From: Deinococcales bacterium
GTDB taxonomy: Bacteria; Deinococcota; Deinococci; Deinococcales; JAAFIG01
Reading direction: 5' to 3'
DNA length: 64,000 bases
NCBI GenBank assembly: GCA_031414595.1
Contig: JANNVX010000067.1
Span: forward strand, 23,102-87,101
Shown here in pieces: positions 1 to 64,000 of this stretch (position 1 is its first letter; the number at the start of each line of letters is the position of its first letter). The notes below the pieces were generated by a model. The model was not told the DNA's origin and did not search any database. It saw only the letters and a program-made list of their open reading frames with translations. A program made the position numbers and the translations under genes.

Positions 1-35
1 TGACAAAACTTGTCAACTAAGCTAGACTGCACCCC

Positions 36-464
36 ATGAGTCTCGAGACCCTAGAAGCCCAAGTCCAACACTTTGAAACCCTAGACAACAGCGCCAGAAT
101 TCAAGCCCTGATAAACTTAGCCCAAAATGTCAGTCAACTCGAGCCAAAGCATAACGAGACATGGGATTTTACCGAAATTCGTCAAGACCAAGAATGCTTA
201 GACGAAATGGGTTTATATCTGCGGCACAACAAAAACACGCTCGAGCTTGCCGCAACTGTTGGCAGTGAAGCCACCACCCTGACACGGGCATTAACGGCTG
301 TCTTGGTGCAGCACCTAAACGGCGAAACCAAAGACCGCATTCTCGAGTTAAAAGACTGCTTCGTACCGCGTTTAGTCGGCGAGAGTTTATTGCGTCAACG
401 TCGTAACGCTGCCTATTACCCCTTGCGCCGTATTCAAGATGCGGTGCGGCACTTTCGAAAGTAA
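36..464 (+). CDS. SufE-family Fe-S cluster assembly sulfur-transfer protein
   Basis: 142 aa with a single conserved-type Cys (QECLD) and SufE-like layout; TAGACT -10 box 7 nt before ATG. Confidence 0.65.
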   Translation: MSLETLEAQVQHFETLDNSARIQALINLAQNVSQLEPKHNETWDFTEIRQDQECLDEMGLYLRHNKNTLELAATVGSEATTLTRALTAVLVQHLNGETKDRILELKDCFVPRLVGESLLRQRRNAAYYPLRRIQDAVRHFRK

Positions 465-662
465 TTTTTTTTACTTGTGCCTGTGTAATCACAGGCTGCT
501 CAAGAACACCAGTCGGAGACTGGCGTTTTGTCGGGTAGGTAGCATGAGTGTTCTCTGAATCACTTGTGAAGTTCTGTATAAAAAACCTCTTTGTTACCGA
601 CGTATGAAAAGCCTTTAAGGAAACAGACTTGATTCTCATAATTACTCTCATATACTAAGCCT

Positions 663-1340
663 ATGGACAGAAAACCATTGGTGCTGGTCGTTGAAGACGA
701 AAAAGACATTGCCCGTTTTATAGAACTCGAGCTTGCCGCCGAGGGCTACCAAACCGAAGTGGCATTTGATGGTGTGACCGGACTTAGTAAGTTCCGTGAA
801 GTCAACCCAGACTTACTGATTCTTGATTTAATGCTGCCCGTCTTAGACGGTCTCGAGGTCGCCCGCCGAGTGCGGAAAACCAGTAATACCCCGATTATTA
901 TTTTGACCGCTAAAGACAGCATTTCCGATAAAGTCGAGGGCTTAGACGCTGGGGCAGACGATTACTTAATTAAACCCTTTAGCATCGAAGAACTTCTGGC
1001 TCGAGTCAGGGCGCATTTGCGGCGGGTCAATCCGGCTGTAACGGGCGAAGTGCGGGTCGCAGATTTGGTCATGAACCTAGACGGGCGCGAGGTTTTTCGT
1101 GGTGGTCGGCGGGTCGAGTTATCAGCCAAAGAATTTGAACTGCTCGAGTTACTAGCCCGTAACCCCGGTAAAGTCTTTAGCCGTTTTGAAATCGAAGAAA
1201 AAGTCTGGCCCGAATACACTGGTGGCAGCAATGTTGTGGATGTCTACATTGGCTACTTGCGCCGTAAGCTCGAGGAATCTGGTGAACGCCGTTTGATTCA
1301 CACCGTCCGTGGTGTTGGTTATGTGCTGCGCGAGGAATAA
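663..1340 (+). CDS. OmpR/PhoB-family response regulator
   Basis: Receiver motifs [24 protein letters not shown]; winged helix ending HTVRGVGY. Confidence 0.97.
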
Positions 1341-1345
1341 GAGCT

Positions 1346-1535
1346 AGGGTTAAAGGGTAAAAAGTAGAAAGCGACCCAGCCCGTGAGCGCGAATAGCCCG
1401 TTAGGTGCTGTTTTATGAGCAAGAAGGTGCATCTTTAGCGACCCAAGCCCGAAGGTGCTGTAGTTGTGGTCAAGAAGGGTCAAGAAGGGTGAAAGTAAAA
1501 ACCTTTAACCTTTTTACCTTTTCGCCTTTTCTACT
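1346..1535. repeat. Inverted arrays of ~8-bp purine/pyrimidine tandem units interrupted by nested 39-bp elements
   Basis: gggttaaa gggtaaaa agtagaaa [insert 1371-1486] gggtgaaa, then complementary cctttaac ctttttac cttttcgc cttttctact. Confidence 0.75.
1371..1486 (+). mobile_element. Three nested copies of a ~39-bp GCG...CAAGAA micro-element
   Basis: Outer copy = 1371-1386 + 1426-1437 + 1477-1486 (38 bp, nearly identical to 53890-53928); inner copies 1387-1425 and 1438-1476 (39 bp each). Mobility is inferred. Confidence 0.75.
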
Positions 1536-1544
1536 GGGGTTTTT

Positions 1545-41675: not shown

Positions 41676-42299
41676 ATGAAAAAAGTAGCACTTTTAGGAG
41701 CCGCTCTCGGATTAAGCGCAGTTTTCGCAGGGTGTGGACTGATTCCACCCATCAAAGTTGATAATCCACTCGGATTGAGCGGCGCAGTATTAAGCGCACC
41801 ACTTTCTGCGACAGGTGCATCGGTTCGCCCACAAGTGGCTGGACAGGGTAACGCCACCGTCAGTGCAACCTTTGCCGACTTGACCACCGCTATTCCATTC
41901 ACACCATCTTCATTCAATGTCCAATTGGCAATTACCAGTGCTACAATCTCGGCTGGCTGCCTTGCTGCGGCAAACGCCACCAGCATTGCTGTAACCGTCT
42001 CAAACATGACCGTTGCTGTTAGTGATTCAACATCTGCCACACCTGCTGTGGTTCGCAGTGTGACTGCAACCATTCCAACCTTTACCTTTAACATCACCCC
42101 TGCTGGTGTGGTCAGCGGTTTGAATGCAGCAAATCTATTGTTCGCCATTCCAAACCTGACTACAGCAATGACAATCATCCAGACTGCACCAACCCCAAAT
42201 AGTGTCAAAGTTGATGCCACTGTTGCCACCAGTCCAGCCTTGAGTGGTTGTACTTTAGGTGTTACCTTTGGTGCTGGTAGCGGCGAAATCAAGCTCTAA
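41676..42299 (+). CDS. Ala/Thr/Ser-rich hypothetical lipoprotein
   Basis: GGAGG SD, lipobox FAGC. Confidence 0.8.
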   Translation: MKKVALLGAALGLSAVFAGCGLIPPIKVDNPLGLSGAVLSAPLSATGASVRPQVAGQGNATVSATFADLTTAIPFTPSSFNVQLAITSATISAGCLAAANATSIAVTVSNMTVAVSDSTSATPAVVRSVTATIPTFTFNITPAGVVSGLNAANLLFAIPNLTTAMTIIQTAPTPNSVKVDATVATSPALSGCTLGVTFGAGSGEIKL

Positions 42300-42316: not shown

Positions 42317-42352
42317 AACCCCTCGAGACTGCTCGAGGGGTTAAACTTTTTT
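42317..42352 (+). terminator. Terminator-like hairpin built from two CTCGAG sites
   Basis: aacccctcgag-actg-ctcgaggggtt followed by aaactttttt. Confidence 0.65.
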
Positions 42353-43042
42353 ATGCGCCCACACCGAACCTTCTACCCAATTCTTACACCAATCATTCAA
42401 ATCATTGGTCTCGAGGCGGCACACTTGCGGGTGCTACGCGCTAAAACTGGTGATTCACTAACTGTTTTTAACGGGGCTGGACTTGAAGCCAAAGGCATGA
42501 TTCTCGAGATTTCCGAGATGCAAATAACCGTCCAACTCGAGCCAGCCACACCAAGCAGTCTCGAGCCACCACAAGCCGTCACTCTAGCCATAGCCATGCT
42601 CAAGGGCGATAAATTATCCGATGTGGTCAGAGCCGCCACCGAACTTGGAGTCTCGAGCATCCAACTTTTAATCACCCAACACAGTGAAGTTAAAGAAATT
42701 GGCACTCAGAAACTCGAGCGCTTAAGACGTATTGCCACCGAAGCCGCCAAGCAATGCCAACGCAATGTTATCCCTAGTGTCCTCGAGCCTGTACCACTCT
42801 TGAGCTTAACCGCCCCCGCAATTGTAGCGCACCCACACTCGAGCTTATTGCCTCGTGAAGCAGTGAGTTGGGATGCACCTTTTACGATTATTTCTGGACC
42901 CGAAGGTGGATTCTCGAGTGCAGAGATTGGTTTACTCGAGCAAAAAGGAATTGTTCGGGTGAGCCTTGGGCGGCGAATTTTACGGGCGGAAACTGCTGCG
43001 CTGGCGCTTATCTCGAGCTTGACGGCGGCAGAGGGGTATTAG
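42353..43042 (+). CDS. rsmE: 16S rRNA m3U1498 methyltransferase
   Basis: HLRVLR, ATELGV, EAAKQC, GPEGGF, LGRRILRAETA. Confidence 0.95.
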   Translation: MRPHRTFYPILTPIIQIIGLEAAHLRVLRAKTGDSLTVFNGAGLEAKGMILEISEMQITVQLEPATPSSLEPPQAVTLAIAMLKGDKLSDVVRAATELGVSSIQLLITQHSEVKEIGTQKLERLRRIATEAAKQCQRNVIPSVLEPVPLLSLTAPAIVAHPHSSLLPREAVSWDAPFTIISGPEGGFSSAEIGLLEQKGIVRVSLGRRILRAETAALALISSLTAAEGY

Positions 43043-43736: not shown

Positions 43737-43823
43737 GGGCAGAAACAACCGCACTTACCCTCGTCTCGAGTTTGACGGCGGCAGAGGGGTGTTAGAAAAC
43801 GCTCTCGAGTGCCGCCAATGCCG
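43737..43823. repeat. Right direct repeat flanking the TA cassette
   Basis: Encodes a degenerate RsmE C-terminus (RAETTALTLVSSLTAAEGC*) and the functional alaS stop. Confidence 0.9.
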
Positions 43824-46479
43824 CACCGACATCCTTAATCCCGCCAGCTTGTGCCATGGCTGGGCTGCCACCACCGTTACCGCCACCAGCTTGAGCCAGT
43901 TTTCGGATAATATCGCCAGCTTTAATGCCCTTGGCATTGGCTTCCTTGGAGACCTTGACCACCAAGCCACCACCAGACCCAACCACAATAATATCAGCTT
44001 TGGTTTTATCCATCAGGTCATCGGCGGCGGTTTTCAATGCCCCACCCTCTACACCCTCAAGTTGAAGCCGGGCTGCCTTGAACCCACCAAGTTCTAAACT
44101 ATCCACATTTGCCCCACCCGCAGTTTGGGCGCGAACCACAGCCGCTTTAAGGTTTGTAATTTCCCTGTTGGCGGCTTTTTGTTCATCAAACAACTTCTCG
44201 AGCCGTTCGGTCAGATTTTCTGGCGTGGTGGTCAGGGCGCGTGATGCCTTTTGCAGTAACTCGAGAGCATGGCGGGTGTACTGTACAGCAGACTCGCCAC
44301 ACAGTGCTTCAATGCGGCGCACGCCAGCTTTAATGCTTTCTTCGGACACAATCACAAACGCACCAATTGAACCCGTACTTGGTACGTGCGTCCCGCCACA
44401 AAGTTCTTTGCTCGAGATGAGTCTAACTGTTTCTAAAATCCCAATACTCGAGACATCGCCACCCACCGAGACAACCCGCACAACATCGCCGTATTTTTCG
44501 CCGAACAATGCCATTGCTCCAGTCTTACGGGCATCCTCGAGATTCATATTTTCGGATGTGATAGCAAAATCAGCTTGAATCCAGCGATTAACCAACATTT
44601 CGACTTTAGCCAGTTCGTCGCTCGAGACACTTTCGGCATGGGTAAAATCAAAACGCAAACGGTCTGGGGATACATAAGAACCAGCCTGATTGACACTCGA
44701 GCCTAAAACTGCTCTAAGTGCGGCTTGTAACAGATGCGTTGCTGTGTGATGCCGTTCTGTGGCACGACGCGCCGAGGTTTCAACACTGGCTTCTACGGTA
44801 TCGCCTTGTTTGAGCGTACCGCGCAGGACAGTACCTTCATGAACAAACACACCCTGAGCCGTTTTGAAGGTATTGGAAATGGCGATTTCGCCATGTTCAG
44901 CCCAGTGGAGCATTCCAGTATCGCCAACTTGTCCGCCACTCTCGGCATAAAACGGGGTTGACTCGAGAACCACTTGCACCAAAGCACCTTCGGTTACACT
45001 CGAGACCAGTTCGTCATTAGCAACCAGTGCAACCACTTTGGCATTGGCTTGGGTACTCGAATAGCCATTAAAAACGGTGGCTGGCACATTCTCGAGCAGA
45101 TTATTTTGCCCTTCAAAGAGTCCGCGCTTAAATTTAGAAGCGCCTCGAGCCAGTGCTTGGGCTTTTTTCAGAGCAGACTTATAACCGTCTTCATCTATGC
45201 CCACCCCGCGTTCCTCAGCAATTTCTTTGGTCAAATCGAGTGGAAAGCCGTAAGTATCGTAAAGCGTAAACGCATCATCGCCAGACAGAACATCGCCTGC
45301 TTTTTTGGTCTCGAGTAGTTTCTCTAAACGCAAAATGCCTTTGCCTAGGGTCTCGAGAAAACTGGTCTCCTCGAGCCTGATTTGTTTTGCCACAGAATCA
45401 GCCGCAGCAACAAGCTCTGGGAAAGCAGCGCCTAGGGTCTGCACCACAATGGGTACAAGGGTGTAGAGCGCGGGTTCTTTCAAGCCCAAAAGATAGGCGT
45501 GACGGCTGGCGCGGCGCATGACTTTACGCACCACATACTCGCGTTCGCCTGTCCCAAAAGTTAGACCATCGGTCAGGGTCATCGTCACCATGCGGATATG
45601 TTCGGCAATGACGCGGTGAGAAACGCTTTTTGTACCTTCGTAGGGTTTACCAGATAGTTTTGCAACTGCGGCAATCAGGGGTCTAAAATCGTCGGTTTCG
45701 TATAAATCCTGCACACCTTGCGAAATCAGAGCAGCCCTGATTAAACCTAAGCCCGTATCAATGTTTTTACGCCCTAAATCCTCGAGTGCGCCCGTGCCGT
45801 CCTCGCCGTCGGAGCGGTTATAGCCCGGAAACACCAAATTCCAGAACTCGAGAAAGCGGTCTGATTCTGGGTTCTTGGCGTAGTCCTCCCAAGTGTCTGT
45901 GCCGAACGCCTCGCCACGGTCATAGAAAATTTCGGAACATGGACCACATGGACCGTTAGGACCTTTTAATGGAGCGTTCTGGGGCCAAAAATTCTCGTCG
46001 GCATCAAAACGGTTAATACGGCTTGGGTCTAAACCAACATGTTGTGTCCAGTAGCCAAAAGCCTCTTCGTCATCTTTATAGATGGTCACATAGATTCTGT
46101 CAGCCTCAAAACCTAGCCAATCTGGGGAGGTGATAAATTCCCAAGCCCATTCAATGGCTTCTTTTTTGAAATAACTGTCAAAAGAAAAATTGCCCATCAT
46201 TTCAAAAAAAGAACAATGGCGCAGTGTTCTGCCAACATTTTCGATGTCGCCAATCCGAATCACTTTTTGGGCAGTGGTGACCCGTTTCCACTCGCCTTCT
46301 ATGCCGATAAACTTGGCTGGCGCTCCAACAAATTGCGGCTTAAACTGCGACATCCCCGCGATACTAAACATCAAGGTTGGGTCGGTATAGACTGGAATTG
46401 GATGCGAAGGAAAACGTAAATGCCCTTTGGATTCAAAAAAGGATAAGTATTTTTCGCGGATGGCAGAAGTAGATAACAT
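43792..46479 (-). CDS. alaS: Alanine--tRNA ligase
   Basis: IREKYLSFF, FFEMMGNFSF, GPCGPCSEI, HHTATHLL, ELCGGTH; start ATG 46479 after TACACT gives 895 aa. Confidence 0.97.
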   Translation of the reverse strand: MLSTSAIREKYLSFFESKGHLRFPSHPIPVYTDPTLMFSIAGMSQFKPQFVGAPAKFIGIEGEWKRVTTAQKVIRIGDIENVGRTLRHCSFFEMMGNFSFDSYFKKEAIEWAWEFITSPDWLGFEADRIYVTIYKDDEEAFGYWTQHVGLDPSRINRFDADENFWPQNAPLKGPNGPCGPCSEIFYDRGEAFGTDTWEDYAKNPESDRFLEFWNLVFPGYNRSDGEDGTGALEDLGRKNIDTGLGLIRAALISQGVQDLYETDDFRPLIAAVAKLSGKPYEGTKSVSHRVIAEHIRMVTMTLTDGLTFGTGEREYVVRKVMRRASRHAYLLGLKEPALYTLVPIVVQTLGAAFPELVAAADSVAKQIRLEETSFLETLGKGILRLEKLLETKKAGDVLSGDDAFTLYDTYGFPLDLTKEIAEERGVGIDEDGYKSALKKAQALARGASKFKRGLFEGQNNLLENVPATVFNGYSSTQANAKVVALVANDELVSSVTEGALVQVVLESTPFYAESGGQVGDTGMLHWAEHGEIAISNTFKTAQGVFVHEGTVLRGTLKQGDTVEASVETSARRATERHHTATHLLQAALRAVLGSSVNQAGSYVSPDRLRFDFTHAESVSSDELAKVEMLVNRWIQADFAITSENMNLEDARKTGAMALFGEKYGDVVRVVSVGGDVSSIGILETVRLISSKELCGGTHVPSTGSIGAFVIVSEESIKAGVRRIEALCGESAVQYTRHALELLQKASRALTTTPENLTERLEKLFDEQKAANREITNLKAAVVRAQTAGGANVDSLELGGFKAARLQLEGVEGGALKTAADDLMDKTKADIIVVGSGGGLVVKVSKEANAKGIKAGDIIRKLAQAGGGNGGGSPAMAQAGGIKDVGAALAALESVF

Positions 46480-46657
46480 AAGGCACAAGTGTACCAAAAC
46501 CTCAAAACAAACGAAAGCGCGTTTTGACCTGAGTGCCGCTTTGGATAAGGCTTTTGACCTTTCATTCTTTGTGACTGCGAATTCGGGGTAGCCATCCTCC
46601 TCGAGTAGCAACAATTGGTTGTTCTCGAGAATCACAGCGCAAGCTCGTTTGACTCGG

Positions 46658-47272
46658 TTAAAGTTCATCCTTGTATTTGACCAGTAACTCTTCGAGGGCT
46701 TCACGCAGTAAACTGGCTTCGGTTCGCCCTGTGGCACTGCTTAATTTGCCCAGCCGCTCGAGTTGGGCTTTTGGGTAGAAATTACTTTTGAGGGTCATTT
46801 TATCTTCCACGTAAATGGCAACACGCCCACGTCCTTCGCGTTTGGCACGGTACATTGCTTCGTCGGCGCAACGCATTAAATCAGCAATGGTTTTAGCATG
46901 GGGTGGCTTGGCGGCAATGCCCACCGAAAGCTGTATTTTTCTGGGGATTTCTGGGCTGATGTTGTGGCTCGAGAAGTGGCTGCGAATTTCCTCGAGTAAA
47001 ATCAAGGCGCTCTCGGCGGTGGTGTCTGGGATGGCAGCTGCGTATTCGTCTCCACCAATTCGTCCGACAATCGCATTTTCTGGGAGGCTGCCACTTAGGG
47101 TGCGTTCTAAACTTCGTAGCACCGTATCGCCAGCCGCATGACCTAGGCTGTCGTTGATTTCTTTGAAGTGGTCTAAGTCTATTAGGGCAATCGCCATAGC
47201 GCTGCTCTCGAGGTGACTCAGGGCTTGTTCAAAGTCGTGACGGTTAAGAACGGGCAAGTAATTCATATGCAC
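46658..47272 (-). CDS. GGDEF domain protein with C-terminal ribbon-helix-helix-like domain
   Basis: IDLDHFKEINDSLGH, GRIGGDEY; tail QLERLGKLSSATGRTEASLLREAL. Confidence 0.88.
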   Translation of the reverse strand: MHMNYLPVLNRHDFEQALSHLESSAMAIALIDLDHFKEINDSLGHAAGDTVLRSLERTLSGSLPENAIVGRIGGDEYAAAIPDTTAESALILLEEIRSHFSSHNISPEIPRKIQLSVGIAAKPPHAKTIADLMRCADEAMYRAKREGRGRVAIYVEDKMTLKSNFYPKAQLERLGKLSSATGRTEASLLREALEELLVKYKDEL

Positions 47273-51252: not shown

Positions 51253-52896
51253 ATGAACATTATTCGTGCTGCAAGAGGCAACCACCGCACCGCCAAAGGC
51301 TGGATTCAAGAAGCCGCCAAACGAATGCTGATGAATAACCTTGACCCCGAAGTTGCCGAGAATCCTGCTGAACTGATTGTTTATGGTGGGCGTGGCAAAG
51401 CCGCCCGTAACTGGGAGGCGTACCATAAAATCGTTGAAACCCTAGACAGACTCGAGAATCACCAAACCCTGTTGGTGCAGTCTGGTAAACCTGTGGCGGT
51501 TCTCGAGACCCAGCCGCTTGCGCCAAGGGTCTTAATTGCCAATTCTAACCTTGTGCCAAATTGGGCAACGTGGGAAGAGTTTGATCGTTTAGACCAAGCT
51601 GGCTTAATGATGTATGGACAAATGACGGCTGGAAGCTGGATTTACATTGGTACACAAGGCATCCTCCAAGGTACGTTTGAAACCTTTGCGGCGGCGGGTA
51701 AAAAACACTTTGCTGGCTCGTTGGCTGGCACAATCACGGTCACGGCTGGATTGGGTGGCATGGGTGGAGCGCAACCTCTGGCGGTCAAATTAGCGGGTGG
51801 GGTGGCGCTTTGTATCGAACTTGACCCAAGCCGAATGCAGCGCCGCCTCGAGACTCGCTATTTGGATGAAGTGGCGGTGTCTTTGACCGATGCGATTGCC
51901 CGCGCTCAAAAAGCCAAACTCGAGAAACGCGCCCTCAGTATTGGTATTTTGGGTAATGTTGCCGAGGTGCTACCCAAGATGCTCGAAATGGGCTTTCTGC
52001 CAGATTTACTGACCGACCAAACCTCGAGCCACGACCCAATGTGGGGCTACATTCCGCCGTCTAAGTCCGATGAGGACATCAACAGGTTGCGAACTGTCCA
52101 ACCTGAAGAGTATTTAAGCCGTACTCGAGCCGCCATCGCCCTGCATGTCAGCACGATGATAGAAATGCAGCGCCGAGGTGTGATTGTTTTTGACTACGGC
52201 AATAATCTACGCGCCCAAGCCAAAATTGCTGGACTCGAGAATGCCTTTGACTACCCCGGATTTGTCCCCGCTTTTATCCGCGATTCTTTTTGTGAAGGGC
52301 GAGGTCCGTTTCGATGGGTGGCACTTTCGGGCGACCCAGCCGATATTGCTGCTACTGATGCGGCGCTGCTCGAGTTGTTCCCCGATGATGCACGTCTGCA
52401 AAACTGGCTTGGGTTTGCTTCAAGCCAAATTCAATTCCAAGGCTTGCCTGCTCGAATTTGCTGGTTGGGCTACCGTGAACGTGATAAAGCCGGACGGCTC
52501 TTTAATCAAATGGTGCGGGATGGGCGCTTAAAAGCCCCGGTTGTAATTGGACGTGACCACTTAGACGCGGGCAGTGTTGCCAGTCCATACCGTGAAACTG
52601 AAGCAATGCTTGACGGCTCAGATGCCGTTTCTGACTGGGCATTGCTGAATTTTGCGACGGGAATTGCCAGTGGCGCGGCTTGGATGAGTTTTCATCACGG
52701 CGGCGGGGTTGGCATGGGGTACAGCCAACATTCGGGCTTGGTTGCCGTGGCAGACGGCAGCGAGGAAGCCGATACGCGCTTGCGCCTGTGTTTGACCAAC
52801 GACCCTGCAATGGGCGTGATTCGTCATGCCGACGCGGGTTATGACCTTGCCAAAAAAGCCGCTACTGAGCGCGGTGTGGACATGCCAAGCCTATGA
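51253..52896 (+). CDS. hutU: Urocanate hydratase
   Basis: [40 protein letters not shown]. Confidence 0.98.
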
Positions 52897-53801
52897 GCCA
52901 GCTTCCATATGTCGGTATCAGCACCTTTGCCAGAGCCAAGCACCAACCACTCGAGACGATGTGGACAGCCGATGTGGGTATTCTTGGCATTCCCTTTGAC
53001 CTCGCCTTGGGTTTTCGCCCGGGAGCGCGTTTTGCCCCTCGAGTGCTGCGTGAAGCCAGTCTGCGCTACGCCTTACCCAAAGAAGGATTTTACGACCTAC
53101 ACAGCAACGCCATGCACTTAGCGGGTCTCGAGATAGCCGATGCTGGCGATGTGAATTTGCCCAGTCTCGAGCCAGAATTATCGCGCATCAGAATTTTTGA
53201 AGCTGTCACTGCCCTGCGTTCTCGGGTTAATCTACCAATTTTTCTGGGTGGCGACCACAGTGTGACATACCCGATTCTGAAGGCTTTTGGGGATATTCCA
53301 GAACTGCATATTGTCCAATTTGATGCCCATTTAGACTTTAGCGATTCACGCAACGACACGCATTTTTCCAACTCGAGTCCATTTCGCCGGGCTGCCGAAG
53401 ATATGCCGAACCTTAAACACATCACCACCCTTGGCTTACGCGGCTTGCGATTTGACCAAGAAGCTGTCCAAGCCGCCAAAGCTCGAGGGCATACTTTAAT
53501 CCTGATGTCTGAGATGACCAATCTCGAGCGGGTGATTTCTTTATTGCCAGACGGTAAAAATGTCTATATTTCTTTTGATGTAGACGTTCTTGAGCCAAGT
53601 TTAGTTCCTGCTACGTCCAGCCCAGAACCCGAAGGCATGGGTTTTGGTATGGCAGTTAATCTTTTAGAAGCCGTGGCAGCTAGAAATACCGTGCTTGGTT
53701 TTGACTTGGTGGAATTTGCCCCGAACCTTGACTCGAGCGGTAACAGCGGACTTTTTTTGGCGCGATTGATGATGGAATTTTTGAAAGCGGTCATGAAATG
53801 A
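52893..53801 (+). CDS. hutG: Arginase-family ureohydrolase, probable formimidoylglutamase
   Basis: GGDHS, FDAHLD, SFDVD; function inferred from position in the hut operon. Confidence 0.7.
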
Positions 53802-53830
53802 ATGTTAGAAGATTAAATATTTGTCGTTAC

Positions 53831-53948
53831 AGGACAGACACGGGGGTCTGTCCCTACGAACAGGGCATCACAATTGCGTCAGGTAGGGGGCGACCCCAGC
53901 CCGTCAGGTGCATCTTTAGGGTCAAGAACGAACCCCTGTGTTCGCCCT
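53831..53948. repeat. Divergent pair of GTAG-type REP palindromes
   Basis: Minus strand gtagggacagacccccgtgtctgtcct (53831-53857); plus strand gtagggg|cgaacccctgtgttcgccct (53883-53948) split by an insert. Confidence 0.8.
53890..53928 (+). mobile_element. 39-bp GCG...CAAGAA micro-element inserted in a REP
   Basis: gcgaccccagcccgtcaggtgcatctttagggtcaagaa; removal restores an intact REP hairpin. Confidence 0.8.
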
Positions 53949-54009
53949 GCCATTCCCTGATTGGTTTTCATTGCCAAACTTTACAAACAAAACTTTGTTG
54001 GAGGCTTGC

Positions 54010-55227
54010 ATGAACGCAGATATTCTCTTCACCAACATTTCACAGTTGGTAACACCGATTGGCGCTGGTGCTCGAGGCGGAAAACAGCAAGCCGAATTAC
54101 AAATCACTCCCAATGCTGCTTTTGCTGTGCAGGATGGCTTAATCGCTTGGGTCGGTCGGCAAAACGACTGGACTGGTACGGCTCGAGAGGTCAAGGATTT
54201 AGGCGGTTGCGCGGTTGTCCCCGGACTGATAGACCCGCATACCCACGCGGTCTGGGCTGGCAATCGCTTAGCCGATTTTGAAGCTCGGGCTTCTGGGATG
54301 CAGTATGAGGAAATTTTACGGCTTGGCGGTGGGATTCGTAGTTCAATACGGGATACCAGTGCTGCCAGTCTCGAGCAATTGGTGGATTTGGCTTTGCCGC
54401 GTTTATTGGCGTTGCAGTCAAGTGGCGCAACCACCATCGAAGTCAAAAGCGGGTATGGTTTTTCTTTAGAAGCCGAGTTGCGTTGTCTCGAGGCGATTAA
54501 AATTTTGCAGTCCAAACTGCAAGCTCATCTCGAGCCAACGCTGTTAATTCATGTGCCGCCACAAAACGCTTCTGAACGTCCAGCTTACCTTGAAATGGTT
54601 TGTTTAGAACTAATTCCGCAAGCTAAACCTTTGGTAAAAGCCGTGGATGTGTTTATTGAACGCGAAGCCTTTAACCTACTCGAGACGCGGCGTATCCTCG
54701 AGACTGCCCAAAATCACGGTTTAGCGGTCAAACTTCACGCCGACCAATTTCATTGCGTCGGCGGTTTGGAGCTTGGCGTGGAACTCGGGGCGTTATCGGT
54801 AGACCATCTAGAAGTCAGTGGGCAACCACAAATTGCTTTAATCGCCAAAAGCCAAACGATAGCTACGATTCTGCCCGGTGTAACCCTGCATCTTGGGCTA
54901 CCCGTTGCACCCGCCCGAGCTTTACTTGAGGCTGGAGCAGCAGTCGCCATTGGCACAGATTTGAACCCCGGCTCGAGTCCAGTCTTTAGTTCGCAAATGG
55001 CATTGGCGCTTGGAGTGCGCTTAAACCGTTTGACCCCCGCCGAGGCATTGGTGGCGTGTACGGTCAATGCGGCTGCCGCCCTTGGTTTACCCAATCGAGG
55101 TCGGCTCGAGGTCGGTTGTGTTGCCGATGCGTTGGTGCTGTACAGTTCAAATTGGCTCGAGTTGGCGTATCTGCTTGGCGTAAACCCAGTCAAAACCATC
55201 TTGATTGCTGGGCAGGAGGTTTTATGA
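54010..55227 (+). CDS. hutI: Imidazolonepropionase
   Basis: PGLIDPHTH, EVKSGYG, KLHADQ, GTDLNPGSSP; GGAGG before ATG 54010. Confidence 0.96.
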   Translation: MNADILFTNISQLVTPIGAGARGGKQQAELQITPNAAFAVQDGLIAWVGRQNDWTGTAREVKDLGGCAVVPGLIDPHTHAVWAGNRLADFEARASGMQYEEILRLGGGIRSSIRDTSAASLEQLVDLALPRLLALQSSGATTIEVKSGYGFSLEAELRCLEAIKILQSKLQAHLEPTLLIHVPPQNASERPAYLEMVCLELIPQAKPLVKAVDVFIEREAFNLLETRRILETAQNHGLAVKLHADQFHCVGGLELGVELGALSVDHLEVSGQPQIALIAKSQTIATILPGVTLHLGLPVAPARALLEAGAAVAIGTDLNPGSSPVFSSQMALALGVRLNRLTPAEALVACTVNAAAALGLPNRGRLEVGCVADALVLYSSNWLELAYLLGVNPVKTILIAGQEVL

Positions 55228-56744
55228 TTTTTGTTGGTGCAGAATTAAGTCTTAAAGATGTGGTCAGTGTGGCTCGAGGCTATACAGAAGTGCAAATTCT
55301 TCCCGAGGCAATTGAACCAATCAACACCAGCCGAGCTTACGTTGAACAACTGGTTGCCGAAAACAAGGTGGTCTACGGTTTGACCACGGGTTTTGGTAAA
55401 CTCGCCCATGTCAAAATCGCCCCCGAAGATGTACGCGATTTACAACGCAACTTAATACTTTCTCATGCGATGGGGGTTGGGACACCCCTAAGTACCGAAG
55501 TGACTCGAGCCATGTTGTTGCTTCGCGCTCAGAGTTTATCGTATGGCTTTAGTGGGATTCGCTTGCTGGTGATTCAACTGATTCTGGACTGCTTAAACGC
55601 CCGAATCCATCCAATTATTCCCGCCCAAGGTTCGGTTGGGGCAAGTGGCGACCTTGCCCCACTTGCCCACATGAGTTTAATGTTGATTGGCGAAGGCAGC
55701 GTTGAATATCAAGGTCATACCTTACCCGCCGCCGAAGCCTTAGCCAAAGCTGGCTTAAAACCTGCGATTCTCGAGGCAAAAGAAGGTCTAGCCCTGATTA
55801 ACGGCACACAAGCCATGACTGCCATCGGTGCATTAACCATTCATGATGCGCTTGAACTGGCAACGGCTGCCGATATTACCGGTGCAATGAGTCTCGAGGC
55901 ATTAAAAGGCACATTAACTTCCTTTGATGCTCGAGTCACCGATGTTCGTCCGCATCCGGGGGCAGCCAAAGTAGCTTCTAATTTGCGAATCATTGGGGCG
56001 AACAGCCCAATCCATGCCTCACATGAACACTGCGAAAAAATTCAGGATGCCTATAGTCTGCGCTGTATGCCCCAAGTGCATGGCGCAAGCCGCGACGCAC
56101 TGCAACACGCCCTCGAAGTTGTGACCCGAGAGGTGAATAGTGTCACTGATAACCCGTTAATTTTTGCCGAAGACCAAAAAGTTATCTCAGCCGGAAATTT
56201 TCATGGGCAACCTGTGGCACTCGCCATGGATTATGCCAAAATTGCCATCGCCGAACTTGCCAATATCTCTGAACGGCGCATCGAGCATATGCTTGACCCG
56301 GCGCTTTCGGGCTTACCCGCGTTTTTGGCTCGACTTGGCGGACTGCATTCTGGTTTAATGATTAGTCAGTACACCGCCGCCAGTTTGGTCAGCGAAAACA
56401 AGGTTTTAGCCCACCCCTCGAGTGTGGACAGTATTCCGACCAGTGCAAACCAAGAAGACCATGTTTCAATGGGAACAACCAGTGCCAGACAAGCCGCGAT
56501 GATTCTCGAGAATGCCCGTTGGGTGATTGCCATAGAACTCCTGAATGCCACCCAAGCCCTCGAGTTTCACGCCCCACTCGAGCCGGGCGCTGGGGTCAAA
56601 GCTGCCAGTGCGTGTTTGCGACAGGTCGTACCGCCGCTCGAGAAAGACCGCATCATGACGGCAGACCTGAACGCGGCTCGAGAATTGATTGTGGGCTTAG
56701 AGTTACGAAAAGCTGTGGAGGCAGTCATCGGTCAGTTAAATTGA
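55224..56744 (+). CDS. hutH: Histidine ammonia-lyase
   Basis: VYGLTTGFG, GSVGASGDLAPL (MIO-forming ASG), QDAYSLRC, NQEDHVSMG. Confidence 0.97.
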   Translation: MIFVGAELSLKDVVSVARGYTEVQILPEAIEPINTSRAYVEQLVAENKVVYGLTTGFGKLAHVKIAPEDVRDLQRNLILSHAMGVGTPLSTEVTRAMLLLRAQSLSYGFSGIRLLVIQLILDCLNARIHPIIPAQGSVGASGDLAPLAHMSLMLIGEGSVEYQGHTLPAAEALAKAGLKPAILEAKEGLALINGTQAMTAIGALTIHDALELATAADITGAMSLEALKGTLTSFDARVTDVRPHPGAAKVASNLRIIGANSPIHASHEHCEKIQDAYSLRCMPQVHGASRDALQHALEVVTREVNSVTDNPLIFAEDQKVISAGNFHGQPVALAMDYAKIAIAELANISERRIEHMLDPALSGLPAFLARLGGLHSGLMISQYTAASLVSENKVLAHPSSVDSIPTSANQEDHVSMGTTSARQAAMILENARWVIAIELLNATQALEFHAPLEPGAGVKAASACLRQVVPPLEKDRIMTADLNAARELIVGLELRKAVEAVIGQLN

Positions 56745-56892
56745 TGGCTACATGCTTTTAATGATGAACTTGAGTTTTGTAGTAGCAATAGGCTCTTTTT
56801 TTGGCTGTTTTCGCAAATAAAGTTTATTAAATTTGGTTCTTGCGTAATTCCTCGAGTATGATGAACTAATAGGTTCGACTTTATCCAAAGGG

Positions 56893-58854
56893 GTGCTACG
56901 AATGCCTAAAACCAAGCAAGCCAAAAATGAACGGAATACCGAAAATGTAATTCGTGATTCGCTTCAAGAAAATGGGTATTATGATCAACGAAGCGATATT
57001 CAAATTGATGAACAAAAAAGCAATATCGCTTCCATAAAAAAAGCCCTCAAGAATGCGAGTAAAACAGGAAAAAGTGGTGTAGGTGCGCCAGAATTTATTA
57101 TTAGTAGCCCTACTAATCCAGATTTTTTGCTTGTAATTGAGGGCAAAGCAGATATAAAAGACCATGAAAGTGGTCAGCTTGAAGAATTGCTAATTCATAA
57201 AATTGACATAACCAAAATTTCGGACACTGAACAATCTGAGGCTATCAAACGGGCAAATAGATTTGCAGTAGATGGAGTATTACATTACGCACGTTTCCTA
57301 GCCAAAGAACACAATGTCATTGCTATTGGTGTAAGCGGGGAAACTGCTAAATCAATAAAGTTATCAACTTACCTTTGGACAAAAGGGGTAGACTTCCCCA
57401 AATTATTAACGGCTAAAGATGGTGCGAGTTTAGATAAAATCATATCGTGGCAAGATTATTTAGACGCTGCAAGTTTTGATCCAAGTGTACAACGGGCAAA
57501 ATTTGATGAATTGATGAGCTTTGCCCACGATTTACATATTTTTATGCGTGACCATGCCAAACTCACGGAGAGTGAAAAACCTTTGTTGGTGAGTGGAACA
57601 CTGATTGCCCTACAAAGCCCTGCCTTTTCATTGGCATTTGGCGCGTATAAACCAAAAGAATTGCAAGACGAATGGTTTAAGGTTATTCAGTCGGAAATTC
57701 AGAAAGCTGAAATCCCAAAAGCAAAAAAAGACAATATGGCACAGCCTTATAGTGGAATTGCAGTTCATCCAGAGTTGGGTAAGCCTACAAAAGAATATCC
57801 CAAAGGTATTTTACATGAACTTATTCAACGCCTAAATGAAAGAGTCAAACCGTTTTTGACGACCTACCGAGACTTTGATGTGGTAGGTCAGTTTTATGGG
57901 GAATTTCTAAAGTACACTGGTGGCGACAAAAAAGCTTTGGGTATTGTTCTAACTCCAAGGCACATTACAGAACTTTTTTCATTACTGGCAAATGTGAATG
58001 AGCAAAGTATCGTACTGGATATTTGTACAGGTACTGGAGGCTTTTTAATTAGCGCCATGCACCAGATGATGAAATCTGCTACAACTGATGCTGAACGTCT
58101 TAGAATTAAACAGTTTGGACTTATTGGGGTAGAGCAGCAACCAAATATGTTTGCTTTAGCTGCCTCAAATATGATTTTGCGTGGTGACGGTAAGGCAAAC
58201 TTGTATCAAGGGTCTTGTTTTGATGATGCAATTACCAAAGCAGTCAAAGAACATAAAGCAGATGTAGGGATGATCAATCCACCATACAGCCAAGGAACGG
58301 CTGATTTGCACGAATTACGCTTTATTCAACATATGTTAGATTGCCTTAAAGAAGGTGGCACTGGTCTTGCCATCGTTCCAATGTCTTGTGCTATCTCTTC
58401 ACATCCAATGAAAGCTGAATTGATGGCTAAGCATACACTCGAGGCTGTGATGTCTATGCCGGGAGAATTATTTTATCCAGTTGGCGTTGTGGCTTGTATT
58501 ATGGTCTGGACAGCTAAAAAACCACATGCGAAGAGCCGAAAAAAGACTTGGTTTGGTTATTGGAAAGAAGATGGATTTACCAAAACCAAACATCGTGGTC
58601 GTTTAGATATTGGTAATTATTGGCAAGATATTAGAAATCACTGGGTAACAATGTTCCTGAATCGTGATGAACATGTAGGAGAAAGTGTAAAACAAGAAGT
58701 TGGTGCAACCGACGAATGGTGTGCCGAAGCTTACATGGAGACAGATTACGGACTTATTTTGCAAGCTGATTTTGAAAAAACGATCAGAGACCATGCGGTG
58801 TTTCGGCTTTTGGGGATTAAAAATGCACCGAGCTTTGCGGAAGATGACCTATGA
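56893..58854 (+). CDS. BcgI-like (Type IIB) fused restriction endonuclease/N6-adenine methyltransferase subunit
   Basis: PEF..VIEGK nuclease motif, GVLHYA, LDICTGTGGFL, NPPY; start may be ATG 56902. Confidence 0.82.
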   Translation: MLRMPKTKQAKNERNTENVIRDSLQENGYYDQRSDIQIDEQKSNIASIKKALKNASKTGKSGVGAPEFIISSPTNPDFLLVIEGKADIKDHESGQLEELLIHKIDITKISDTEQSEAIKRANRFAVDGVLHYARFLAKEHNVIAIGVSGETAKSIKLSTYLWTKGVDFPKLLTAKDGASLDKIISWQDYLDAASFDPSVQRAKFDELMSFAHDLHIFMRDHAKLTESEKPLLVSGTLIALQSPAFSLAFGAYKPKELQDEWFKVIQSEIQKAEIPKAKKDNMAQPYSGIAVHPELGKPTKEYPKGILHELIQRLNERVKPFLTTYRDFDVVGQFYGEFLKYTGGDKKALGIVLTPRHITELFSLLANVNEQSIVLDICTGTGGFLISAMHQMMKSATTDAERLRIKQFGLIGVEQQPNMFALAASNMILRGDGKANLYQGSCFDDAITKAVKEHKADVGMINPPYSQGTADLHELRFIQHMLDCLKEGGTGLAIVPMSCAISSHPMKAELMAKHTLEAVMSMPGELFYPVGVVACIMVWTAKKPHAKSRKKTWFGYWKEDGFTKTKHRGRLDIGNYWQDIRNHWVTMFLNRDEHVGESVKQEVGATDEWCAEAYMETDYGLILQADFEKTIRDHAVFRLLGIKNAPSFAEDDL

Positions 58855-59816
58855 AAACGATACCACTTTCAGAATTATTTGAAGTTAAATATGGAGTCAA
58901 TTTAGAATTAAACCGAATGATTCCTGACACTGAGGGTATCCCATTTATTGGGCGTTCAGATAAGCAAAATGGTGTGACTGGACGCGTCCAGATGCTCGAG
59001 AACATAGCGCCACTACCTGCGGGTACATTGACTGTGGCTGGAGGTGGTTCAGTATTGGCTACTTTTTTGCAAATCGAACCATATTACTCTGGGCGCGATT
59101 TGTACTATCTGACCCCAGTAGAGCGCATGACTGATGCTCAAAAACTATTTTATGTAACCTGTATTAGAGCAAACCGTTACCGCTATAATTATGGTAGACA
59201 AGCTAACCGAACCTTAAAAAGTATTCGAGTTCCTGTACTGAGTGAAATACCAACATGGTTTGAAACGGTTGATGTCAATATGTTCGCAGGTAAAGATGCT
59301 CCATTAAAAGCAGACCCGCTTTTAGGGTTGGGCGATGTTTGTCAGTGGCAACAATTTCTATATCAAGACTTATTTGAAATTGAGCGAGGGCGTGGTCCAA
59401 GAAAAAAAGATGTTGATGGTTCTGGCTTGACACCATTTATCACCTCGATTGATAACAATAATGGCTTAACCAGTATGTGCAACTCTGAACCTATACATAA
59501 TGGAAATGTGATTAGTGTCAATCGAAATGGAAGTGTTGGTGAGGCATACTATCAACCCTTACCTTTTTGTTCAACCGAAGACGTTCATGTTTTTAATCCT
59601 AAGTTTAAGATGACTGCTGCTATTGGACTTTTTTTTGTGACCCTGATTCGTAAAGAAAAATACCGTTTTAGTTATGGTCGTAAGTGGGGGATTGAGCGTA
59701 TGAAAAAATCGGTAATTCGGTTGCCAATAGATGCTGTAGGGCAACCAGATTGGCAATTTATGGAGAATTATGTCAACTCACTTGCGTTCAGTAGCCAAAT
59801 AGGTCAACCTGGCTAA
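58851..59816 (+). CDS. Restriction-modification specificity (S) subunit with two TRDs
   Basis: Two repeats (LFEVKYG..YRYNYGRQ and LFEIERG..YRFSYGRK), PDWQFMENY; ATGA overlap. Confidence 0.85.
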   Translation: MKTIPLSELFEVKYGVNLELNRMIPDTEGIPFIGRSDKQNGVTGRVQMLENIAPLPAGTLTVAGGGSVLATFLQIEPYYSGRDLYYLTPVERMTDAQKLFYVTCIRANRYRYNYGRQANRTLKSIRVPVLSEIPTWFETVDVNMFAGKDAPLKADPLLGLGDVCQWQQFLYQDLFEIERGRGPRKKDVDGSGLTPFITSIDNNNGLTSMCNSEPIHNGNVISVNRNGSVGEAYYQPLPFCSTEDVHVFNPKFKMTAAIGLFFVTLIRKEKYRFSYGRKWGIERMKKSVIRLPIDAVGQPDWQFMENYVNSLAFSSQIGQPG

Positions 59817-61736: not shown

Positions 61737-61854
61737 CTCGAGACAGCGCAATCGTAGATACTCGAGACTCATTTTGTGGTCTTGTCGTTTCTATGCCATA
61801 ATCTAGCCTCTAAAGCAATTCGGTTTTAATAATTTATTTCTCGTGGGGGCTAAC

Positions 61855-62913
61855 ATGGTTTTTGATGCAATTTCGTTTTTACTCGGTGGTTTGATTTTTG
61901 GTGTGCTGGTTTGGGGTTTACAATCGTATCTGAATCGTCCTCAAAAAACCTTGCATACGCAAGAACTGCGCGAAGTTAAACAACAACTTTCCAGTGCTAA
62001 ACAAGAGATGGAGCGTGTAAAAACGCACTTGAGTGAAAAAACGGCAACCGCCACGCAACTCGAGGCAACCCAAGTCGAACTTAAACAACGTCTGCCTAAA
62101 CTCGAGGGGTTTGAACGTGCCAACGCAGATTTGCGTTTGCAAATGCAGGGTTTTGATAATGTCAAAGCCAAACTCGAGGCGGCAGAAACCCAACTGCAAA
62201 GTCTGAAACAAAAAGCGGCTGAGTTTGACGGGTTACAAAGTAAATTGGAAGCTGTGCAAACAGAATTTATGGCACTGAAAACCAAAACGTCTGGATTTGA
62301 AACCATTCAAGCCAAAGCCAGTCGCACCGACGAACTCGAGCAGAGCATGGCAAAAATCGAACTCGAGAAAGCCAATATGCTCAAAGAAGTCAATACAGCC
62401 GTTCTCAAAGCCTCAGATGCCGAGGCAGCCCAAGCAAAACTGAAAGCCAGCCTTAACGAAAGCGTGGCAGAAGTGGCTCGAGTCAGGGCGGGAATGCAGC
62501 AATTTGAGGGCTTAAAGGCACGGATAGACGAACTTGAAGCCAGAGGAGTTTCAAACGAAACCCAAGCCAAACTTGATGGTTTAGAAACTGAACTGAGTGC
62601 CTATAAAGCCCGTGTGACTCAACTCGAAACCGCCAGCAACACAGAACTTGAATTGACTCGAGGGCGAATTCGTGAACTCGAGAACGTCGTGCAACCCGAA
62701 GTGCATGTTGTGGAAACGGCAGAGCTTGTGCATGTCGTAGAAACGGCACAGCTTGTTGATGTTGTGCAAACCAAGGAAATGGTTGCCGTGACCGAAGTTA
62801 TAGAACCAGTTCAACTCGAGAATGCGGTATCGGAAATCCAAGCAATCAGTGAAGTGACGCAAAGCACCGAACCCGAGTCAGCCCCAACTGATTTAAGTCC
62901 CAGCCAGTCCTAA
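61855..62913 (+). CDS. Membrane-anchored coiled-coil protein
   Basis: N-terminal TM, long heptad region, 9-aa tandem repeats near the C-terminus. Confidence 0.75.
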   Translation: MVFDAISFLLGGLIFGVLVWGLQSYLNRPQKTLHTQELREVKQQLSSAKQEMERVKTHLSEKTATATQLEATQVELKQRLPKLEGFERANADLRLQMQGFDNVKAKLEAAETQLQSLKQKAAEFDGLQSKLEAVQTEFMALKTKTSGFETIQAKASRTDELEQSMAKIELEKANMLKEVNTAVLKASDAEAAQAKLKASLNESVAEVARVRAGMQQFEGLKARIDELEARGVSNETQAKLDGLETELSAYKARVTQLETASNTELELTRGRIRELENVVQPEVHVVETAELVHVVETAQLVDVVQTKEMVAVTEVIEPVQLENAVSEIQAISEVTQSTEPESAPTDLSPSQS

Positions 62914-63477
62914 TTCTGTGGCAGATGCACGAAGCCCAGCTATTACGTTTTCGATGTGCTGCTCGAGGGTAAGCTCGGGCAGGATGCCTTGTAATTCTTG
63001 TAATCCAAGGGCAATGTCTTGGCGGTTCACACCTTTGGCAAAGGCTTTGTCTTTAAGTTTTTTCTTGACACTGTTCATCTCGAGATTATGAATACTTTTA
63101 TCGGGACGGACATAGGTCGCGGCAGTGCAGAACCCACACAATTCATCCACGGCAAAAAGCGCAATGGCGAGTTTAGTGACTCGAGCCACACCACTGCCTG
63201 TGTAATGCCCAAGAATCGCTTCAAGAATTTTTTCGGATAATGCTGTATTTTGGCGCAAATAATTTACCCCCCAAAATGGATGACCATTTTCGCCAAGGTC
63301 TGGATGCGATTCATAATCAAAGTCGTGTAGTAAACCAGTAATTGCAAATTCGGTTTTGTCTTCGCCTAATATTCCAGCATAGTGAACCATGGCGGCTTCA
63401 ACAGCCAACATGTGTTTACGCAAAGAATCGGATTTTGTAAATTCACACACCAAGTTAAACGCTTCGTCTCGAGTCAT
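62893..63477 (-). CDS. HD-domain phosphohydrolase
   Basis: LRKHMLAV, GLLHDFDYE, FAVDEL, AFAKGVNR. Confidence 0.9.
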   Translation of the reverse strand: MTRDEAFNLVCEFTKSDSLRKHMLAVEAAMVHYAGILGEDKTEFAITGLLHDFDYESHPDLGENGHPFWGVNYLRQNTALSEKILEAILGHYTGSGVARVTKLAIALFAVDELCGFCTAATYVRPDKSIHNLEMNSVKKKLKDKAFAKGVNRQDIALGLQELQGILPELTLEQHIENVIAGLRASATELGLAGT

Positions 63478-63492
63478 AAACAGCAGTTTAAC

Positions 63493-63860
63493 CTACTCGA
63501 GCGGTGGCAGTTGCGCGTATAGGTTTGAAAGTACAATTTCAAAATCTAAACTCGGAAAAACTAGGGTAGCATCACCCTCGAGTGTATTGTAACGCCAACC
63601 AGACTCGTCCCTCGAGTACACCTCGGCTTTCGGTTCGTCTTGAGATAACAAAATATATTGTTCTAAACTGGGAATTTGCTGGTAGGTTTGCCATTTTTCG
63701 CCTCGGTCTACGGCTTCGGTGCTGCTTGATAAAACTTCGATAATAATCGTAGGGAAATACTGGGTGCGTTTATCCTGCTTGGCATTCTGAGCAACAATGT
63801 AGGCATCTGGATAATAACCACGCCCAGTCGGTGTTTTTAGAATGACATCATGATAGATAT
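63493..63860 (-). pseudogene. 5'-truncated Uma2-family endonuclease
   Basis: YYPD..IIIEVLSSSTEAVDRGEKWQTYQQIPSLEQYILLSQ; upstream in-frame stop and no N-terminal part. Confidence 0.75.
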
Positions 63861-64000
63861 CAATAGTCTGGAACGTTTTTTAAATTTAAGAAATTAAAAG
63901 TGGAAGCCCTACTGTAAGCTGTGAGTGTCTAAACCAACGCTCCAAAAAGGCTTCCATGACTATCTTAAACCAAATTCTGACCTTAGCGGGTATTCGCAAA

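Follow-up and report, generated by a model that had tools for sequence, protein, structure and literature searches.

Abundance, conservation and possible maintenance of CTCGAG, a HIP-type palindromic word in genomes of a Deinococcales family

The DNA uptake sequences (DUS) of Neisseria and the uptake signal sequences (USS) of Pasteurellaceae are asymmetric words of 9–12 bases, present at about one copy per kb and explained by biased uptake plus recombination; for DUS, the receptor is known. The Dcm/Vsr system and the CCWGG excess of Escherichia coli provide a different precedent, where repair tied to a methylated palindrome can raise its frequency. The closest described system is the cyanobacterial highly iterated palindrome (HIP) HIP1, GCGATCGC. 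Why cyanobacteria fill their genomes with HIP1 has been an open question for thirty years, and transformation has been implicated only recently. As far as the accessible text of these sources goes, HIP1 raises natural transformation in a way that depends on methylation (bioRxiv 10.1101/2024.09.10.611283) and has been proposed as an uptake signal in a study using phylogenetic regression (PMC13756078), and its distribution is quasi-periodic at 10–90 kb (Xu et al. 2018, PMC5861425), being read by Xu, Lawrence and Durand as that of nucleoid sites (PMC5861425). The available part of another paper describes a Nocardia orphan CTCGAG methyltransferase with a non-restriction role, the motif clustering at the replication origin (Blow et al. 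2016, PMC4752239). The present study concerns the same six-base palindrome, CTCGAG, in a stretch of 64,000 bases from a Deinococcales bacterium (hereafter, the window) and in related genomes.

CTCGAG is best read as a HIP-type genomic word, an exact 6 bp palindrome present at about 5 copies per kb throughout the resident DNA of one uncultured family. The original prediction, made from the letters of the window alone, had described the word as hyper-abundant; its hand count of 27 copies in the first 6 kb is exact, and the excess extends much further. The window, with a GC-content of 47.9%, lies on contig C67 of the genome designated G000 and contains 355 copies against 14.3 expected from base composition. 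Each 4 kb of it holds from 11 to 31 copies, in genes and spacers alike, and the longest gap free of the word is 1,587 bases, starting at position 56851. The whole G000 genome as analysed (4,488,778 bases in 120 contigs, 94% complete) contains 23,235 copies where 971.5 are expected. The observed/expected ratio (O/E) is 23.9, and a copy occurs every 193 bases on average. The palindrome is, as HIP words are, over-represented by at least an order of magnitude genome-wide. Its density is very even over G000, with a mean of 20.7 and a variance of 30.8 per 4 kb.

Markov-model ratios, which had been proposed as a check, place CTCGAG first among the hexamers of G000 at orders 0, 1, 2 and 3 (O/E of 23.9, 43.6, 18.1 and 3.8, respectively). 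Under order 4 the O/E is only 1.16; this drop is circular, as the word itself generates the 5-mers CTCGA and TCGAG. The hexamers next in frequency are words overlapping it, and 69% of the TCGA tetramers of G000 sit within it. Over the ten positions on each side of the word the information content is at most 0.026 bit. The flanks are thus approximately random, and the unit is exactly six bases and no part of a longer repeat. A dispersed repeat, a miniature inverted-repeat transposable element (MITE) or a repetitive extragenic palindrome (REP) was ruled out as the carrier of the word, as conserved sequence stops at the core.

The distribution over reading frames was studied with crude gene calls, namely 3,775 ATG-started open reading frames (ORFs) of at least 100 amino acids, chosen greedily and covering 86% of G000. 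Coding DNA contains 5.15 sites per kb and the remaining DNA 5.32, the latter figure corresponding to 3,370 sites against 118 expected (29-fold). Frames 0, 1 and 2 hold 11,910, 3,830 and 4,143 sites. When synonymous codons were shuffled within genes, five times, 1,879–1,998 of the 19,883 coding sites remained (about 1,300, 400 and 255 in the three frames), leaving an approximately 10-fold excess that persists in every frame. The shuffle is a conservative control, because the codon pool already holds the motif. CTCGAG shares with HIP words this occurrence in every frame and outside genes, at a level that codon usage does not account for. The prediction had seen the word in all three frames and in intergenic DNA and had judged simple codon bias insufficient; it was to be dropped if the excess disappeared after control for codon and dipeptide usage or was confined to one frame, and neither is the case.

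Outside the word, CTC makes up 8.0% of leucine codons and GAG 20.6% of glutamate codons. The pair Leu-Glu is encoded by CTCGAG in 11,910 of 19,813 cases, TTAGAA and CTTGAA being the runners-up, in agreement with the remark made by eye on the window that such pairs are either CTCGAG or several changes away from it. Leu-Glu is also the most over-represented dipeptide of the G000 proteome (19,813 against 8,844 expected, 2.24-fold); Glu-Leu is found at 0.98 and Ser-Ser at 1.5 times expectation. The influence on proteins was studied in alaS, where 53 family site positions could be aligned with 10 or more orthologues from outside the family. In 49 cases, the outside residues are mostly such that CTCGAG could not encode them: LD, VE, RE or VR stands outside the family where LE stands within it, and xES or xDT where the family has xSS. 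The bias towards CTCGAG overrides amino-acid choice at variable protein positions.

Conservation of individual sites was assessed in DNA aligned to G000, comprising 135.6 kb of G001 (91% identity), 44 kb of G005 (93%) and 48 kb of G003 (80%). In G001, 666 of 754 CTCGAG sites (88.3%) are identical, compared with 83,565 of 132,891 of all other hexamers (62.9%). Other NTCGAN words are kept at a background-like 61.1% (193/316), other NNCGNN words at 60.8%, hexamers of the same composition at 61.6% and other palindromes at 55.7%. Conservation of position above background between relatives, again typical of HIP words, is hence specific to the full hexamer. Divergence of third codon positions from G001 is 6.5% inside the word and 18.9% outside, and that of non-coding DNA 3.7% and 10.0%; for G003, the respective values are 15.8% and 40.7%, and 5.0% and 22.2%. 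All six positions are protected in the G001 alignment, and sites already present disappear at about a third of the rate of change of the bases around them. One base away from the word, third-position divergence is 12%; it is about 19% from distance 2 outward, and non-coding divergence is at background from distance 1. Such an abrupt end of protection at the motif speaks against a locally lowered mutation rate; local hypomutation around the sites was rejected, divergence being at background two bases away.

No class is less stable than the words differing from CTCGAG by one base: of 354, 169 are conserved in G001 and 49 read CTCGAG there. This conversion was found for 14 of 26 copies of CTCAAG, 11 of 40 of TTCGAG, 6 of 23 of CTTGAG and 7 of 34 of CTCGAA, and for 3 of the 161 transversion neighbours. 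Variants one transition away become CTCGAG at 10–54% where silent sites differ by 19%. Sites that have changed differ by at least two bases in 41 of 88 cases, against 29% for other hexamers (p = 0.0006), and this excess of multi-base changes fits the remark on Leu-Glu pairs mentioned above. Site-to-neighbour ratios in non-coding DNA, corrected for base composition, give an e^S of 19–84, or an S of about 3–4.4 (about 3 for transition neighbours and about 4 for transversion neighbours). Genome-wide, CTTGAG and CTCAAG have an O/E of 1.07 and TTCGAG and CTCGAA of 1.23, with no depletion.

Many alaS site positions are common across genera in the 14 family genomes compared, among them frame 1 and frame 2 sites absent from every non-family genome. 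In 38.4 kb aligned among G000, G005 and G001, the word stands in all three genomes at 184 positions, is missing from one genome only at 44 and is present in one only at 20. Most of the single-base losses (15 of 17 by hand count) are C-to-T or G-to-A. When G003 is added (80% identity), 89 of the 110 sites common to the three close genomes are found there as well. CTCGAG therefore behaves in the HIP1 manner that had been proposed for it, occurring in all frames and non-coding DNA, conserved in position and in excess of codon and dipeptide usage.

Synteny between G001 and G000, which are about 91% identical in aligned DNA, breaks every few kb, and some derived alleles in the G000/G001 comparisons are shared in patterns conflicting with the majority tree. 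Both observations suggest frequent recombination or mosaic contigs of metagenome-assembled genomes (MAGs).

The suspicion that the skew is lineage-wide was borne out. All 18 other genomes of the family (f1, five genera) carry 4.3–6.8 CTCGAG per kb. Among other Deinococcota, family f3 (82 genomes, mostly of genus g7) has at most about 0.5 per kb, and genus g9 (27 genomes) about 0.6–1.6, near the value of the reversed control word; in the g9 sample, no excess beyond codon usage was found. Intermediate densities were obtained for g13, g18 and g19 of family f5 (1.4–3.4 per kb) and for g6 and g27 of family f2 (1.5–2.4 per kb). Samples of 20–43 kb from these f5 and f2 genera show the excess in non-coding DNA as well (36 sites in 9.7 kb in G117), and frames 1 and 2 of G117 contain 9 sites each against 1.5 and 2.0 after shuffling. 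The alaS loci of the family have GC-contents of 47–59%, and 40-kb samples of G013 and G010 are about 60% GC each. Sites in alaS are distributed over frames 0, 1 and 2 as 164/28/65 in the family, 46/0/1 in f4 and 21/2/0 in f5. The extreme excess belongs to the family, and a milder one reaches further into the phylum. The original prediction had also named Meiothermus-like genomes as rich in CTCGAG. This has a basis in the excess in g13, g18 and g19, which covers all frames and non-coding DNA; these genera are judged Meiothermus-like by size and GC-content. The genera with the weaker excess are probably Meiothermus-like and Truepera-like, with cultured members, and point to organisms where experiments may be possible.

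The features of the window related to the word are listed below.

1..64000, no strand: CTCGAG copies, 355, counted in genes and spacers
39925..41556, minus strand: mutL, confirmed with Pfam; 11 sites, 6.7 per kb
42317..42342, plus strand: terminator-like hairpin, CCCCTCGAG-actg-CTCGAGGGG, followed by a T run; the stem consists of the CTCGAG copies at 42322 and 42332
42353..43042, plus strand: rsmE-type RNA methyltransferase gene (PF04452); 11 sites, 15.9 per kb, the highest density among the genes of the window
43792..46737, minus strand: alaS; 19 sites, 6.5 per kb; used for the family-wide site map and the amino-acid test
51253..56744, plus strand: hut genes (hutU, hutG-like of the arginase family, hutI, hutH), assigned with Pfam; 4.9–8.8 sites per kb
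56893..59816, plus strand: CTCGAG-poor island with an N6-adenine methyltransferase and an HsdS-like subunit; 2 sites in 2.9 kb, GC-content 0.40

The high densities noticed earlier in rsmE, alaS, mutL and hut are reproduced by these counts. The hairpin, located between the ORF ending at 42299 and rsmE, is built on two copies of the word; the first reading of the window had noted the word in a terminator stem there. Close pairs of copies are rare in G000. Their frequency relative to expectation is 0.14–0.41 at distances of 8–12 bases and 0.14–0.7 at 8–20, with mild depletion to about 65 bases; abutting pairs (distance 7), for which folding back is impossible, escape depletion (0.84). Beyond about 70 bases, and for distances up to 1.5 kb, the spacing shows the 3-base codon period alone. 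Pairs 8–30 bases apart are non-coding in 21–26% of cases and pairs more than 60 bases apart in 11.5%. We infer that hairpins are avoided inside genes and that pairs of copies are reused as terminator stems between genes. The starts and ends of genes show no change in density, except for dips at the ribosome-binding region with the first codons and over the final 15 bases ahead of the stop. A short dispersed repeat of about 40 bases, containing no CTCGAG, lies at approximately 1370–1480 of the window, between the genes for a response regulator and a histidine kinase; it gives 39 BLAST hits in G000 and many in five relatives.

Regions with no more than about 1 site per kb form 20 islands in G000, together 59.5 kb (1.3% of the genome). 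In 18 of these islands the GC-content is low. Among the 20 are a defence-like island with a transposase and a Sacsin/NOV_C protein (GC-content 0.35), a polysaccharide-synthesis (O-antigen-like) cluster (0.31) and a pilin-type cluster with a 1,194-amino-acid protein. The combination of an excess in resident DNA with a deficit in recently acquired DNA, known from DNA uptake sequences, is thus found for CTCGAG, and its density is a practical marker of resident versus foreign DNA in these genomes. The island of the window, between hutH and an ABC-F gene, encodes a methyltransferase of 653 amino acids and a specificity subunit of 321 amino acids. No HsdR was found near the pair, and no orthologue of the methylase in the 18 other family members. 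Judged by its sequence, it reads as a recent foreign modification and specificity module that has yet to acquire CTCGAG. Sporadic restriction-modification loci elsewhere carry 3.8–8.9 sites per kb; such CTCGAG-rich loci appear to circulate inside the family.

The 1,194-amino-acid protein (contig C8:39520-43101, locus L338:3518-7102) belongs to no Pfam family and is encoded beside prepilin-type genes. It is 44–49% identical in genomes with 92–93% DNA identity, and its best match, at 52%, is in another genus; the gene is predicted to be a hypervariable, pilus-associated one. Viral contigs were scanned with a three-copy CTCGAG pattern. Of the 30 densest among the 80 loci listed, 29 have a GC-content of 0.62–0.74, and none resembles the 47–48% GC family. 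No HK97-type capsid gene scored above the cut-off in the 19 family genomes.

G000 is rich in methyltransferases, with 9 Eco57I-type, 5 C5, 9 PF01555 and 1 Dam-type matches. Several adjoin nucleases of NgoPII, TdeIII or NgoBV type, these restriction genes standing next to C5 methyltransferases. Such neighbours fit the extreme avoidance of GGCC (O/E 0.011) and of most other palindromes in G000, where 27 of the 64 six-base palindromes have an O/E below 0.1 and GATC one of 0.14. Two enzymes are TaqI-like (Eco57I plus TaqI_C domains), here called the C89 and C4 types, with orthologues in 3 and 2 of the 18 other family genomes, respectively. An orphan XhoI/PaeR7I/TaqI-like methyltransferase accompanying the enrichment had been proposed as a search target; among the 18 relatives, mostly incomplete MAGs, neither of these types nor the methylase of the window (0 of 18) tracks the excess. 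Five Pfam methyltransferase families were searched, PF01555 and PF00145 being tabulated in 40 relatives and PF02384, PF07669 and PF02086 in four or five family genomes each; in these tables, most relatives being incomplete MAGs, no methyltransferase is present in every genome. The closed genome G013 has no PF01555 (beta-class) enzyme and one C5 enzyme, G010 has no C5 enzyme and G006 has six candidates in all.

Comparison with the Protein Data Bank (PDB) gave no specificity for these enzymes; the chains nearest to the C89 type are 7lni/8cxz and M.BseCI, not M.TaqI. Chains 7lni/8cxz are, as we take them to be, the CAAAAA-specific CamA of Clostridioides difficile. The C89 gene stands alone on a 2.1-kb contig (locus L081:286-1965), encoding a TaqI-like adenine methyltransferase. 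CAAAAA/TTTTTG is the most over-represented hexamer of G000 after the words derived from CTCGAG, with an O/E of 4.1.

The XhoI-family endonuclease (PF04555) was found in none of the 19 family genomes and in 3 of 22 non-family Deinococcales, in two of which it adjoins a PF01555 methyltransferase. In the third carrier (G031:C1:1094186-1096226; loci L098, L252 and L253), the gene is broken by stop codons and adjoins a gamma-class methyltransferase, a distant homologue of the C89 enzyme. The locus looks like a decaying CTCGAG restriction system that would leave an orphan methylase. A word serving as an XhoI-type restriction target is not what the family presents, with CTCGAG enriched and no cognate endonuclease found in its 19 genomes. 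A search of G000, a 94% complete genome, did not reveal Vsr.

Several explanations of the excess can be weighed against these data. That an exact palindrome of six bases is symmetric between strands and as dense in spacers as in genes speaks for recognition of duplex DNA by a symmetric protein, and not for a role of RNA or peptide. Of the two processes named in the original prediction, selection for a binding or uptake site is a better fit than methylation-coupled repair. Tentatively, and as a possibility falling somewhat short of an even chance, a weak fixation bias may maintain CTCGAG, its probable route being uptake or recombination within the family. A putative symmetric (dimeric) protein would read the duplex word, and DNA carrying it would gain an advantage in transmission or fitness, most likely during DNA uptake or homologous recombination between family members. 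The result would be a molecular drive like that of the Neisseria and Haemophilus uptake sequences and like the role now proposed for HIP1, in which a population-scaled bias of about 3–4 could hold sites at about 5 per kb. Methylation, no conserved methyltransferase having been found, may or may not join in recognition. Nearby copies can pair, and close pairs would consequently be avoided in genes and reused as terminator stems between them. The stricter proposal, that CTCGAG is a family-wide "self" word through which a putative hexamer-specific protein, without a dedicated methyltransferase, biases the DNA that is taken up, recombined or kept, is rather doubtful.

Several points weigh against a fixation bias linked to uptake or recombination. 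No reader protein or receptor was identified, and the pilus-associated 1,194-amino-acid protein, considered as a receptor, was rejected, being not found in G013, G009, G010 and G015. Known uptake sequences are about five times sparser than 5 per kb and are not palindromes. Divergence data do not distinguish between a fixation bias and biased repair acting on the hexamer. With G003 as the outgroup, clear single-lineage losses number 20 against 4 gains, and four-way aligned DNA holds 156 sites in G003 and 132–134 in the three close genomes; maintenance in this three-genome clade may be weakening, not at equilibrium. As the clade has fewer sites than G003, the asymmetry of losses and gains is not taken as proof of selection.

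That CTCGAG is instead bound by an abundant protein of the nucleoid or of chromosome organisation, and kept for chromosome structure, is an unlikely alternative to such a fixation bias. An exact palindromic hexamer suits a dimeric DNA-binding protein, and so do the even density over the genome, across gene starts and ends apart from the dips noted, and the conservation of positions across genera, from which the same inference was drawn for HIP1 in the accessible text of PMC5861425. No candidate protein was identified, however, the spacing has no periodicity up to 1.5 kb besides that of codons, and a single site among 23,000 should matter little, though very large populations could see an effect. 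Less probable still is a self-mark for defence or DNA processing, Chi-like or a reverse restriction in which DNA rich in the word is spared or repaired and DNA lacking it is degraded. The low-GC foreign islands without the word and the heavy restriction pressure visible in the avoided palindromes agree with it, and Chi is a known over-represented self word. Chi words are, on the other hand, asymmetric and strand-skewed, while CTCGAG is palindromic, and a PDDEXK_1 search gave no distinctive pattern of AddAB/RecB type: G000 has a stand-alone match of 256 amino acids and G013 a weak one, and Thermaceae-like genomes without the extreme excess have matches of 900 amino acids.

Methylation-coupled biased mismatch repair (the Elhai model), in which a methyltransferase marks CTCGAG or TCGA and repair converts mismatches in near-sites or damaged sites to the methylated word, is improbable here, if not as much as the self-mark. 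This mechanism has been proposed for HIP1 and alternate HIPs, each with its cognate methyltransferase, according to the available text of PMC4390886, and CTCGAG and TCGA methylation is described as common to one hot-spring genome group and its phages in the accessible part of a preprint (bioRxiv 10.64898/2026.06.24.734251). G000 itself has two TaqI-like adenine methyltransferases and many others, its one-off variants that keep TCGA have an O/E of 0.84 against 0.56–0.59 for those with TCGA broken, and the recent single-base losses are mostly of the C-to-T or G-to-A kind. Against it, none of the candidate enzymes from the five Pfam families searched is universal in these mostly incomplete MAGs, G013 and G010 each lacking one class and G006 having just six candidates, and divergence does not drop beside the sites. 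Repair of deaminated cytosine in particular is opposed by the six-base footprint, the disfavouring of transversion neighbours at least as strongly as of transition ones, the undepleted T-containing neighbours and the failure to find Vsr in G000 or a conserved methyltransferase. Nor do the genomes present the signs of very-short-patch repair, with no Vsr in G000, no C5 enzyme in G010 and those same T-neighbours at full frequency. The repair route of the original prediction, with no XhoI-family nuclease found in the 19 family genomes either, is not supported by these results. A compositional by-product, whether of codon usage, Leu-Glu richness, a dispersed repeat or mobile element, or an assembly artefact, has next to no probability. 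Sites in high-GC non-family alaS genes are almost all in frame 0 (f4 and f5), and the order-4 Markov model "explains" the count. This last result is circular, however, and a by-product is refuted by the shuffling, flank and codon-usage results: the 10-fold excess after synonymous shuffling and the 29-fold excess in non-coding DNA, the random flanks, which leave no longer repeat, and the minor share of CTC and GAG outside the word. The excess is also present in 19 assemblies, a one-contig genome included.

In the literature searched, with most subscription journals and supplements outside its coverage, no report of a genome-wide CTCGAG excess in Deinococcota was located, and no paper was found joining CTCGAG with the term "highly iterated palindrome". 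New here are the six-base footprint, the attractor dynamics with an estimate of S, the hairpin-type spacing and the island map, together with the negative tracking of methyltransferases, XhoI and Vsr and the weaker all-frame excess in other genera. The bias of about 3–4 in population-scaled units, the six-base footprint and the hairpin-type repulsion are numbers for models to fit. If CTCGAG were truly a "self" word, the HIP phenomenon would have arisen a second time, at higher density and by an independent mechanism, and the HIP question would become testable outside cyanobacteria.

Among known systems, XhoI/PaeR7I restriction-modification recognises the same word, yet restriction targets are normally avoided and CTCGAG is enriched. 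The Nocardia motif forms a local cluster near dnaA, whereas the family genomes are saturated throughout and no conserved orphan enzyme was found in them. The Dcm/Vsr effect is small and depletes T-neighbours, in contrast to a 24-fold excess with undepleted T-neighbours and no Vsr found. DUS and USS resemble CTCGAG in being genome-wide words shared by a family, rare in foreign DNA and tolerated in coding sequence, and their copies pair as terminator stems, as CTCGAG copies do in the window. Nearest of all are HIP1 and the alternate HIPs, which are likewise short GC-containing palindromes in tens-of-fold excess, as far as the accessible text of PMC5861425 and PMC4390886 describes them. Like CTCGAG, HIP1 occurs in all frames and in non-coding DNA, is conserved in position and lineage-wide, and its mechanism is debated, again judging by the accessible sources. 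Unlike HIP1, CTCGAG has no accompanying conserved methyltransferase that could be found, and it visibly reshapes the proteome (Leu-Glu at 2.24 times expectation). It has six bases against the eight of HIP1, belongs to a different phylum and, at about 5 per kb, is denser than HIP1 at roughly one per gene (accessible text of PMC5861425). A second system in another phylum, with another word and five times the density, helps to separate general causes from cyanobacterial peculiarities.

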